Shown in pieces: positions 3,974-57,176 of a DNA stretch of 64,000 nucleotides. The stretch comes from Gammaproteobacteria bacterium. GTDB taxonomy: Bacteria; Pseudomonadota; Gammaproteobacteria; Magnimaribacterales; AG-339-G14. The notes under the pieces were generated by a model. The model was not told the origin of the DNA and did not search any database. It saw nothing but the letters and a program-made list of their open reading frames with translations. A program made the position numbers and the translations under genes. The stretch is from NCBI GenBank assembly GCA_045564455.1, contig JBJLHG010000001.1, forward strand, positions 11,754 to 75,753, read 5' to 3'. Within the stretch, counting starts at the first letter, position 1, and the number at the start of each line of letters is the position of its first letter.

Positions 3974-4249
3974 ATGTCACTAACCAAAGCAAAACTAGTT
4001 AATTATTTAAATGATAAAATGGGCTTACCTAAAAAAGATTGCTCTATGATTGTGGAAGCTTTTTTTGAAGAGATATCTACTGCTTTACAAAATGGAGAAG
4101 AAGTTAAACTTCCCGGTTTAGGAAATTTTTCAGTTACTCATAAAAAAAGCAGACCTGGAAGAAATCCTAGAACCGGAAAAGAACACACAATTTCAGCAAG
4201 AAATGTTGTTAGTTTTAAAGCTGGCAGAAAGTTGAGAAAAAGTCTTTAA
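3974..4249 (+). CDS. ihfA: Integration host factor alpha subunit
   Basis: 91 aa HU/IHF fold (GLGNFSV...RPGRNPRTGKE). Sits immediately downstream of pheT as in other gammaproteobacteria. Confidence 0.85.
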   Translation: MSLTKAKLVNYLNDKMGLPKKDCSMIVEAFFEEISTALQNGEEVKLPGLGNFSVTHKKSRPGRNPRTGKEHTISARNVVSFKAGRKLRKSL

Positions 4250-50604: not shown

Positions 50605-50641
50605 TTTCTAATAATCTCTCTTGATAATATATTCTCTGAAG

Positions 50642-50688
50642 ACCCTATATCTTGTGTCTTTATTCTTTTTCTATACAAGATAAAGGGT
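50642..50688. promoter_or_regulatory. Candidate tandem NrdR boxes upstream of nrdA
   Basis: ACCCTATATCTTGTGT (50642-50657) matches the remembered acaCwAtATaTwGtgt consensus at 14/16. ATACAAGATAAAGGGT (50673-50688) matches at 12/16. Centres are 31 bp apart. Confidence 0.5.
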
Positions 50689-50765
50689 TTTTAAGTAAAA
50701 ATCAATAGAATAATCTATGAAAATTCAGTGGATTAAGTGTGTATAACTAGATATAAAGACACAAT

Positions 50766-54336: not shown

Positions 54337-55098
54337 ATGAACACTAGTAAACCTGTAGCAATAATAACTGGTTCAAGCAGAGGCGTTGGGGCTGAAGTCG
54401 CAAAAAAACTCTCTTCAAAAGGGTGGAATATAACAATCACATGTTCTAATTCAATAGATTCTGCCAACGAAGTTGCAAAAAGTTGTGAATTGTTAGGAGC
54501 TGAAGTATTGATAATTAAGTCAGATGTATCCAATGCAGCTGATTGTATAAATGTAGTTAAAAAAACATCAGAAAAGTGGGGAAAAATAGATTCTTTAATT
54601 AATAATGCAGGCACTACTAAATTCAATGCTCATCATGAGTTAGATGGACTTTCTGCAGATGATTTTTTAAAACTTTATAGCGTTAATACGGTTGGACCTT
54701 ATTTGATGATAAAAGAAGCTCACTCACTATTGTTAAAAAGTCCAATTGCAAGTGTAGTTAATATTGCCTCCATAGCAGGAGTTACCGGTATAGGGAGTTC
54801 AGTAGCTTATGCAGCTTCTAAAGGAGCATTAATAACCATGACTAAATCTCTAGCAAGAGCTTTAGGCCCCATTCGAGTAAACGCGATCTGTCCGGGATTC
54901 ATTCAAGGAGACTGGTTAAAAAATGGTTTAGGAGAAGAAGTATATGAGATGGTAAAAAAAGCCACTGAAGATGCGACGCCTTTGAGTCTATGCGTAACTG
55001 CAGAGCAAGTAGCTGATTCAATATGTTATTTTGCTCAAGACGCTGTAACAACAACAGGTGAAACTCTATTACTAGATGGCGGAGCTCACTTAAGTTAA
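54337..55098 (+). CDS. Short-chain dehydrogenase/reductase (FabG-like)
   Basis: 253 aa (ITGSSRGVG, NNAG, YAASK). Confidence 0.8.
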   Translation: MNTSKPVAIITGSSRGVGAEVAKKLSSKGWNITITCSNSIDSANEVAKSCELLGAEVLIIKSDVSNAADCINVVKKTSEKWGKIDSLINNAGTTKFNAHHELDGLSADDFLKLYSVNTVGPYLMIKEAHSLLLKSPIASVVNIASIAGVTGIGSSVAYAASKGALITMTKSLARALGPIRVNAICPGFIQGDWLKNGLGEEVYEMVKKATEDATPLSLCVTAEQVADSICYFAQDAVTTTGETLLLDGGAHLS

Positions 55099-55130
55099 TT
55101 AATATATAAAATTATTGCTCTTAAGTTATT

Positions 55131-55189
55131 GATTTTTAATTAATAAAAAAAATCAAGATTTTTATTCTTTTTATAAGATTATTTTTAAC
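55131..55189. repeat. Three AT-rich 13-mer-like repeats
   Basis: GATTTTTAATTAA (55131), GATTTTTATTCTT (55157) and GATTATTTTTAAC (55177). These loosely resemble the E. coli DUE 13-mer GATCTnTTnTTTT. Confidence 0.3.
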
Positions 55190-55419
55190 TAAAAAAATTT
55201 TTTTTTATTCTAATTCTTGAATTATTTTCTCAAGTTACACACAACACTTACCTCATAAACAATTAACTGAATATCCATTGCATAAAAATTATGTATATCG
55301 ATGCAGTTTTCTATATTTTTTTAAATTATTGATTTTATTGGCTTTTTTTAATTGATCAAAAATTGATCAATTTAAGTAAAGCCTTTTTGTTTAAAAGGGT
55401 TTCAGATTGTCAAAAATTT

Positions 55420-55454
55420 TTATCCAAAGACTTATCCACAGATTCTGTGGATAA
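55420..55454. promoter_or_regulatory. Cluster of three DnaA boxes (two perfect, inverted; one 8/9)
   Basis: TTATCCAAA (55420-55428), TTATCCACA (55432-55440) and TGTGGATAA (55446-55454), against consensus TTATCCACA. A further TTACACACA lies at 55235-55243. Confidence 0.5.
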
Positions 55455-55481
55455 AAAAAACTGCTTTGGTAGGATATAAAT

Positions 55482-56153
55482 ATGGAGTTCAAATTGCCAG
55501 AAAATTGGAAAATTTTTTTAGAAAATGAAGACGAAAAAGAGTATATGTTATCGCTTAAAGGCAGTCTTTTTGAAGGATTTAAAAATCAAAGAAAAATCTA
55601 CCCTGAAGCCAGAAATATTTTTAGAGCTTTTGAACTAACACCTTCTAATAAAACTAAAGTAGTAATTTTAGGACAAGATCCCTATCATGGAATTAATCAA
55701 GCAAATGGTCTCAGCTTTTCTGTTGGTGAAAACATCAAAATCCCTCCTTCACTTAAAAATATTTTTAAAGAAATTTATACTGATCTGGGAATAGTTAATA
55801 AATCTAACGGAGAATTGTCTTCATGGGCTAATCAAGGCGTTCTTTTACTTAACTCAGTTTTAACTGTTGAAGATAGCCAGCCTGGAATTCATTCAAATTT
55901 GGGATGGGAAACATTCACCGACAAAGTCATTCATAAATTAGGCGAAGAAGAAGATATTGTTTTTATGCTCTGGGGAAAATTTGCATCAAATAAAACTAAA
56001 TTTATAAATCCGGATAAAAATTTAATCTTAAGTTCTTCTCATCCATCACCATTATCTGCTTACAGAGGGTTTTTTGGCTCTAAACATTTTAGTAAATGCA
56101 ATGAATACTTATCTTCTAAAAACAAAGAGAAAATAAATTGGAAAATTAAATGA
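55482..56153 (+). CDS. ung: Uracil-DNA glycosylase
   Basis: 223 aa (VVILGQDPYHG, GLSFSV, LLLN, HPSPLSA). Confidence 0.92.
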   Translation: MEFKLPENWKIFLENEDEKEYMLSLKGSLFEGFKNQRKIYPEARNIFRAFELTPSNKTKVVILGQDPYHGINQANGLSFSVGENIKIPPSLKNIFKEIYTDLGIVNKSNGELSSWANQGVLLLNSVLTVEDSQPGIHSNLGWETFTDKVIHKLGEEEDIVFMLWGKFASNKTKFINPDKNLILSSSHPSPLSAYRGFFGSKHFSKCNEYLSSKNKEKINWKIK

Positions 56154-57131: not shown

Positions 57132-57133
57132 CT

Positions 57134-57160
57134 GAACTTATGCACAATGCAGCTGTCAAA
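57134..57160 (+). promoter_or_regulatory. Candidate sigma-E-dependent (autoregulated) promoter of rpoE
   Basis: GAACTT (57134-57139), a 16-nt spacer, then TCAAA (57156-57160), against the remembered consensus GGAACTT-N16-TCAAA. Lies 17 nt upstream of the rpoE ATG. Confidence 0.55.
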
Positions 57161-57176
57161 AGATAAAAAGACATAA

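Follow-up and report, generated by a model that had tools for sequence, protein, structure and literature searches.

The 64,000-nucleotide stretch of contig JBJLHG010000001.1 analysed here (the window) belongs to a SAR86-type marine bacterium and carries, directly upstream of the uracil-DNA glycosylase gene ung, a non-coding spacer at positions 55099–55481 whose right end holds three boxes for the replication initiator DnaA. The box cluster is real and highly non-random. We consider that the spacer is probably a chromosomal DnaA-control locus of the DnaA-reactivating sequence (DARS) type, closest in its make-up to DARS2 of Escherichia coli, and not a replication origin; no features of an origin are seen in this non-coding DNA. 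A first-pass annotation of this DNA had listed a DARS-like site among several options, and that option gains support from the box order, the box orientation and the 5-bp and 3-bp spacers, which are those of the E. coli DARS cores, and from the presence of IHF- and Fis-type sites on the box III side. Moreover, the spacer may well be one member of a large composite element, undescribed so far in the literature that could be searched, in which boxes I, II and III, separated by 5 bp and 3 bp, are followed after 51 nt by a Fis-type palindrome and, about 19 nt further on, by an IHF site. Such an element would occur in numerous lineages, which are probably beta- and gammaproteobacteria, at GC contents of about 0.3–0.7, and nearly always beside genes of DNA repair or replication restart: ung, priA/rpmE, hemW, xseA and recG, together with uvrB and mutH in E. 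coli.

The three-box core and its conservation

A DARS core is defined by two opposed DnaA boxes, I and II, which lie 5 bp apart and carry a head-to-head DnaA dimer that releases ADP, and by a box III that shares the orientation of box II and has a stabilising effect on the complex (PMC6868365). This box arrangement has been called unique to DARS (PMC8682772). On the minus strand the spacer reads TTATCCACA-gaatc-TGTGGATAA-gtc-TTTGGATAA (box I-5 bp-box II-3 bp-box III), boxes I and II being opposed with 5 bp between them (55454–55432) and box III, oriented like box II, being 3 bp away from it. Viewed on the plus strand, the boxes are TTATCCAAA at 55420–55428 (+), TTATCCACA at 55432–55440 (+) and TGTGGATAA at 55446–55454, the last a minus-strand box, exactly where the first-pass annotation had placed its cluster. 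The E. coli cores, taken from strain MG1655, are TTATCCACT-attcc-TGTGGATAA-cca-TGTGTATTA for DARS1 and TTATTCACC-ttttc-TGTGGATAG-agt-TGTGAAGAA for DARS2, and the I-5-II-3-III geometry of both is identical to that of the SAR86 core.

The window contains two perfect DnaA boxes, both of them in this core, and boxes with one mismatch occur at chance level (23 observed, 17.5 expected). A head-to-head box pair with a 5-bp spacer is present exactly once in the 64 kb, and a search of 1.35 Mb of sequence around ung from 80 other species yielded a single further pair, in the SAR86 homologue L031.

The spacer was aligned for nine lineages, comprising the window, a close variant, SAR86 relatives graded by the identity of their YgfZ proteins (92, 55, 52 and 47%), the SAR86 single-cell genome locus L031, whose Ung is 54% identical, and the loci L161 and L176, which are also linked to ung and are more distant. 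Relatives were anchored on YgfZ, encoded next to ung, which proved the better anchor; Ung is too conserved across bacteria. In these lineages 25 of the 27 box positions and both spacings are invariant, while outside the boxes the spacer is invariant at 34 of 348 positions and about 68% conserved. Near-identical strains show substitutions between the boxes and none inside them. Conservation in relatives, a check that the first-pass annotation had named, is thus found for the whole box cluster.

Some observations on the available homologues may be added. In a collection of 5.8 billion proteins the Ung of the window lineage forms clusters at 100 and 92% identity, the next ones being at most 63% and most of them at most 60% identical; a search of genome contigs with Ung, in which the best identity among the matches listed was 59%, gave the locus L031. 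One contig (HARO18-2 scaffold_9765, L003 1–40) carries an identical ung gene, and its match to the spacer is lost completely at the end of the contig, some 100 nt ahead of ung, so that this junction is either an assembly chimera or that of a strain with a different junction. A further sequence, L002, breaks off within the spacer.

Accessory sites and the wider family of the module

The further conserved blocks of the spacer are a 13-mer with the IHF consensus, a 19-bp element TTG-N13-CAA and a weak fourth box. IHF and Fis are the two activators of DARS2, and the consensus sequences used for them were those of PMC4245941. The core and the features that accompany it are as follows.

55420–55454, minus strand: three-box DnaA core (box I 55454–55446, box II 55440–55432, box III 55428–55420)
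55354–55368: Fis-consensus 15-mer GATCAAAAATTGATC (consensus GNNYANNNNNTRNNC), starting 51 nt past box III
55322–55334, minus strand: IHF-consensus 13-mer AATCAATAATTTA (consensus WATCAANNNNTTR), an exact match starting 85 nt past box III
55122–55134, minus strand: second IHF-consensus 13-mer AATCAATAACTTA, present only in the clade with a short-chain dehydrogenase (SDR) gene to the left of the spacer
55235–55243, plus strand: weak fourth DnaA-box-like site TTACACACA, with one mismatch to TTWTNCACA
55379–55403: short inverted repeat AAGCCTTTT...AAAAGGGTT, which five lineages retain (as AGCCCT/AGGGCT in L098)
3974–4249, plus strand: ihfA, encoding a protein with 57% identity to E. coli IhfA over 88 amino acids; in the conserved position immediately behind pheST that it also has in E. 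coli

The IHF 13-mer at 55322–55334 is conserved in all nine lineages, with at most one mismatch. The Fis-type 15-mer sits in the constant 19-bp element (55352–55370) and is kept in eight of the nine, all four of the possible Y/R combinations being represented. Twelve IHF-consensus matches occur in the window and two of them fall inside the 383-nt spacer; the product of ihfA is presumably the factor that would act on these 13-mers in trans. The weak fourth box, correctly reported in the first-pass annotation as a TTATnCACA-like site at 55235, lies within a 13-mer, AAGTTACACACAA, that does not vary among six of the nine sequences in the alignment, those of the SDR-containing clade. At this position L031 reads TTACGCACA, and a box-like TTGYCMACAGA is found nearby in L161 and L176.

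These offsets recur far outside SAR86. A scan of metagenomes for TTATCCACA-N5-TGTGGATAA yielded at least 120 stretches, and 80 loci (L100–L179), with GC contents ranging from 0.26 to 0.70, were analysed. In 41 of the 80 listed loci a third box with two mismatches or fewer is separated from the pair by exactly 3 bp; the other offsets between 0 and 12 almost never occur. For the accessory sites, 58 modules with enough flanking sequence were oriented from box I to box III. A Fis-consensus 15-mer starts 49–52 nt past box III in 24 of the 58 as an exact match, and in 43 if one mismatch is allowed, the typical palindrome being GGTCAAAAATTGACC; an IHF 13-mer follows at 84–87 nt, always on the same strand, exactly in 20 modules and with at most one mismatch in 35. 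At other offsets there are almost no matches to either consensus, and the box I side shows no consistent offset. With its sites at +51 and +85, the spacer of the window belongs to this composite family.

The neighbours of the module among the listed loci are a hemW-type radical-SAM gene, with rpmE on the other side, in nine loci, priA in four (one of them from a Beggiatoa-like gammaproteobacterium), xseA in three, recG in one and ung in three, which are SAR86-like; Kdo-kinase-family genes and ParA-like genes account for three loci each. It lies 200–300 nt past the 3' end of hemW in the nine loci with that gene, and 28–193 nt upstream of priA and xseA in other lineages. The box pair is also found in two dnaA-dnaN spacers that were sampled, in both cases lacking box III. 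The module is therefore a unit in its own right.

The 19-bp element and the inverted repeat beside it also permit a structural interpretation, according to which the repeats at 55351–55371 and 55379–55403 would form a small RNA or a terminator, the boxes being incidental. The region 55340–55420 does fold better than shuffled sequences on both strands (z −2.7 and −3.7), and pairing in an 8-bp stem is maintained with two-sided changes at four pairs. However, Rfam searches at gathering and permissive thresholds produced only a tRNA elsewhere and chance-level matches in the spacer, with no family assigned, and a promoter and terminator scan of the spacer gave nothing on the ung strand, neither a sigma-70-like promoter nor a T-run terminator. 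Furthermore, the mismatches in the stem favour different strands in different lineages, the positions that vary match the degenerate ones (Y...R) of the Fis consensus, in all four combinations, and both the 19-bp length and the distance to box III stay constant across unrelated bacteria. Given the Y/R combinations, the strand-inconsistent mismatches and the constant length, we prefer to see the 19-bp element as a protein site on DNA rather than a hairpin, and find the RNA or terminator explanation scarcely credible. The repeat at 55379–55403 is absent from L031, L161 and L176. A scan for tRNA and tmRNA detected none in the spacer, and its four short open reading frames, of 20–38 amino acids, are all unsupported.

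A duplicated motif, AATTGATCAA, which the first-pass annotation had reported at about 55360–55380 together with two GATC sites, is present, although its copies are located at 55350–55359 and 55361–55370. The two GATC sites are not conserved, relatives reading TTGATTAA, TTGGTTA and TTGTATAA instead, and an involvement of GATC or Dam was rejected on this ground and because GATC is about as frequent as expected (218 against 195).

Genomic setting, and the origin and operator alternatives

The remaining features of the spacer and its immediate neighbours are listed below.

54337–55098, plus strand: SDR gene, left neighbour of the spacer
55482–56153, plus strand: ung (uracil-DNA glycosylase, PF03167), right neighbour of the spacer, which always accompanies the element
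55145–55207: A/T tracts and 'GAT-rich 13-mers' (A8 at 55145–55152; A7T9 at 55192–55207)

As the first-pass annotation had noted, the spacer is the largest and a strongly AT-rich non-coding region of the window (383 nt, the runner-up having 210 nt; GC content 0.20 against 0.33 window-wide). Its left neighbour differs by lineage, being the SDR gene, serA or an OYE-family gene, and its right neighbour is always ung, such that the element travels with ung. The latter is convergent with ygfZ, with which it overlaps by 8 nt (56146–56153). The gene order nrdAB-glpK-argF-serA-(SDR)-spacer-ung-ygfZ-sdhE-rpoE-rseA-degP-lepA-lepB-rnc-era-recO is common to the window, the loci of the YgfZ homologues and the SAR86 single-cell genome L031, and one YgfZ homologue with this order is named "SAR86 cluster bacterium"; it is this shared order that identifies the host as a SAR86-type marine bacterium with a compact genome. 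SAR86 is among the most abundant uncultured groups of bacterioplankton and has a streamlined genome with very little non-coding DNA.

A large AT-rich spacer in such a genome invites the interpretation, also offered in the first-pass annotation, that it is the origin oriC, its left part supplying AT-rich sequences for unwinding and its right part the DnaA boxes. The spacer is indeed the most AT-rich of the window, it combines strong DnaA boxes with IHF-consensus sites and A/T tracts, and its overall architecture is conserved across SAR86. Nevertheless, we regard an origin here as highly improbable. Genes to the left of the spacer number 44 on the plus and 12 on the minus strand, and those to the right eight and one, so there is no orientation switch; the plus-strand run continues to the right for at least 10 kb, and the orientation on the left is opposite to that predicted for an origin. 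The first-pass annotation had itself raised the counterpoint that the ribosomal-protein, groESL and ileS operons on the left point toward the spacer, which is correct, as is its remark that neither dnaA nor gidA is adjacent: none of dnaA, dnaN, mnmG, mioC and rpmH occurs within the 64-kb window or within the 10-kb flanks of six related loci.

The internal structure of the spacer leads to the same view. There are only three strong boxes and one weak one, and they are arranged head-to-head and not in head-to-tail arrays. Within the spacer, conservation is lowest in the 30 nt adjoining box III (mean 0.58), and these contain no trinucleotide repeats. The A/T tracts and 13-mer-like repeats are kept only in the SDR-containing clade and are absent or different in L031, L161 and L176, the last two lacking the part of the spacer that holds the repeats. 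The three repeats picked out by the first-pass annotation differ from the E. coli 13-mer consensus at three to five positions and are not conserved as a repeat family, and its A7T10 tract is in fact A7T9 (55192–55207). Conservation across the nine lineages gives no evidence for a duplex-unwinding element in the A/T-tract region. Elsewhere the module adjoins priA, xseA, hemW/rpmE and recG, and in its complete form it is absent from the two dnaA-dnaN spacers sampled.

GC skew, which the first-pass annotation had proposed to compute, proved uninformative in this genome. Cumulative skew rises through the whole window and is positive on both sides of the spacer, and the skew at third codon positions is 0.036 for genes of either strand; bulk skew therefore mirrors the coding strand and cannot locate an origin here.

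The likeness to an origin of the E. coli type is thus confined to the combination of DnaA boxes and an IHF site in AT-rich non-coding DNA and to box III, which has the sequence of the E. coli box R3 (TTATCCAAA). The spacer is without the head-to-tail arrays, the conserved unwinding element, the orientation switch and the origin-linked neighbours of such an origin, and E. coli oriC lacks the head-to-head pair with a 5-bp spacer. For annotation this is a caution, in that a strong cluster of DnaA boxes in an AT-rich spacer is not necessarily an origin.

More weight has to be given to control of ung itself, which the first-pass annotation had put forward as its minimal reading. The distance from the end of box I to the ung start is 27 nt in the window clade, 14 nt in L161 and 29 nt in L176, and at 14–29 nt, the range seen in most lineages, any ung promoter must overlap the boxes or lie upstream of them. 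The cluster could therefore be primarily a DnaA operator that represses or roadblocks ung and couples uracil repair to the replication cycle, with no role in nucleotide exchange. The location of the module upstream of priA and xseA in other lineages would fit such a function, as would the conserved DnaA boxes in the nrdAB upstream region of the SAR86 clade, which resemble those of the DnaA-regulated nrdAB promoter of E. coli (PMC8682772). On the other hand, the distance of 60 nt in L031 indicates that promoter geometry is not conserved, the scan of the ung strand gave no sigma-70-like promoter, and in the nine hemW loci the module lies downstream of a gene. Moreover, simple repression requires neither Fis- and IHF-type sites at fixed offsets nor a strict 5-bp head-to-head spacing. 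We therefore judge it rather unlikely that operator function is the whole story; as an additional role it is possible, it is compatible with DARS function, and a gating of ung by DnaA is plausible.

Two further DnaA-box-like sites of the window deserve mention. In the region 50605–50765 (upstream of nrdA, minus strand) a DnaA-box-like tandem, TTATNCACA-c-TTAATCCAC, lies about 135 nt upstream of the gene, one box being at 50738–50746. The pair is kept in all SAR86 lineages checked and varies only at the N of TTWTNCACA (A, C or T), which shows canonical DnaA recognition to be under selection in SAR86. In the sdhE-rpoE spacer (57132–57176), GAACTT-N16-TCAAA is conserved in relatives and constitutes a sigma-E-type promoter before rpoE; the one-mismatch 'DnaA box' TTATGCACA at 57138 is therefore merely a part of that promoter.

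Proposed DARS-type function and known DnaA-control loci

If the spacer acts as a DARS, DnaA would bind boxes I and II as a head-to-head dimer and release its ADP, while box III, which has the orientation of box II and is separated from it by 3 bp, would stabilise the DnaA complex in head-to-tail fashion. The freed DnaA could then take up ATP again and become competent for initiation. Binding of Fis at +51 and of IHF at +85 may bend or loop the DNA and in this way tune the activity of the core according to growth phase or cell cycle, like IHF and Fis at DARS2. Occupancy by DnaA would probably also block or gate ung transcription, given how closely box I precedes the ung start in most lineages, much as is reported for DARS1 at the uvrB promoter P3.

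DARS2 homologues have been reported for 'E. coli-proximal' species, namely Vibrio, Shewanella and enterics (PMC8682772). A literature search for DARS outside the relatives of E. coli, or for a SAR86 origin, retrieved nothing relevant. The exact core geometry and the fixed-offset IHF- and Fis-type sites in SAR86 suggest that DARS has a wider reach, and chromosomal DNA sites that control the nucleotide state of the initiator may be a general proteobacterial mechanism. Should the composite family prove real, DARS-type recycling of DnaA would be ancestral and widespread, not peculiar to E. coli relatives, and it may be wired to the expression of repair genes; the neighbours of the module hint at a link between the DnaA cycle and DNA repair. 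The 35-bp core, and a minimal candidate element of 135 bp (55320–55454), are now defined, and the composite supplies a signature by which sites of this kind can be sought in any genome.

Several points weigh against a DARS assignment. To our knowledge, E. coli is the only organism in which DARS sites are known from experiments, and its sites are the only members of the proposed family with a biochemical or genetic characterisation. The box geometry might simply be the best cooperative high-affinity arrangement for DnaA and be used as an operator. Taken by itself, the lone Fis-consensus match in the spacer is at chance level, and a search of about 200 kb of SAR86 sequence gave no fis gene, a part of the genome so small that this negative is uninformative. 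The locus is not syntenic with DARS1 (bioD-uvrB) or with DARS2 (rppH-mutH) and is not a positional orthologue of either. The DARS2 core used in the comparison was placed at MG1655 2969135–2969169 from oligonucleotide sequences and text rather than from a published figure, and the order in DARS2 is core, IHF, Fis, whereas in SAR86 it is core, Fis-type, IHF-type.

Among the known DnaA-control loci, the first-pass annotation had also suggested a likeness to datA. The general make-up of datA, with a high-affinity box cluster and a conserved IHF site in non-coding DNA outside the origin (PMC5742627), is indeed found here, and a datA-like locus would titrate DnaA or, with IHF, stimulate hydrolysis of DnaA-bound ATP and thus act as a negative regulator. 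The layout of E. coli datA is different, TTATTCACA-agc-TGTGGATGA, with opposed boxes separated by 3 bp and further boxes about 160–230 bp away, whereas the SAR86 layout matches the DARS cores at every spacing. We thus consider a datA-like locus, whose effect on DnaA would be opposite to that of a DARS, very unlikely.

DARS1 is 101 bp long and needs neither IHF nor Fis, and it shows no IHF or Fis consensus at the family offsets. Its core reportedly coincides with the DnaA box that blocks the uvrB promoter P3. The SAR86 locus resembles it in having a perfect box II and in being located upstream of a repair gene. The stimulatory flank of DARS1 lies on the box III side (PMC4585315).

The layout of DARS2 was compiled from oligonucleotide sequences in the supplement of PMC8682772 and from PMC4245941 and PMC11724364. 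Read in this way, the core is followed on the box III side by IHF sites at +58 and +74, FBS1 at +110, FBS2-3 at about +150 and box V at +176. A second triple, at MG1655 2969451–2969485, was first taken as the DARS2 core and was set aside when the oligonucleotides and text of papers from the Katayama laboratory pointed to 2969135–2969169; the geometry argument is unaffected. It lies in the rppH-mutH spacer (L092 2452–2486), about 280 bp from the published core, and is the weaker one, reading TTATCCCAG-ctttc-TGTGGATAA-cat-GGTGTAAGA. At 84 nt beyond its box III there is an IHF 13-mer with one mismatch, and at +36 the published FBS6; this triple may be a degenerate copy of a family-type module.

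Compared with DARS2, boxes I and II are perfect in SAR86, whereas all three DARS2 boxes are imperfect; the neighbour is ung and not mutH, sequence homology does not extend beyond the motifs, and the host is uncultured, streamlined and far from the 'E. coli-proximal' species. The DARS2 order of core, IHF and Fis, with IHF about equidistant from the core and the Fis site, is not that of the SAR86 locus, where the offsets are +51 for the Fis-type site, +85 for IHF and +176 to +184 for the weak box. Nevertheless, the locus appears to share with the DARS2 subtype an IHF site near the core, and in both, consensus sites for IHF and Fis follow within about 100–170 nt on the side of box III, the regulatory part has a further DnaA box, and the location is non-coding and next to a DNA-repair gene.

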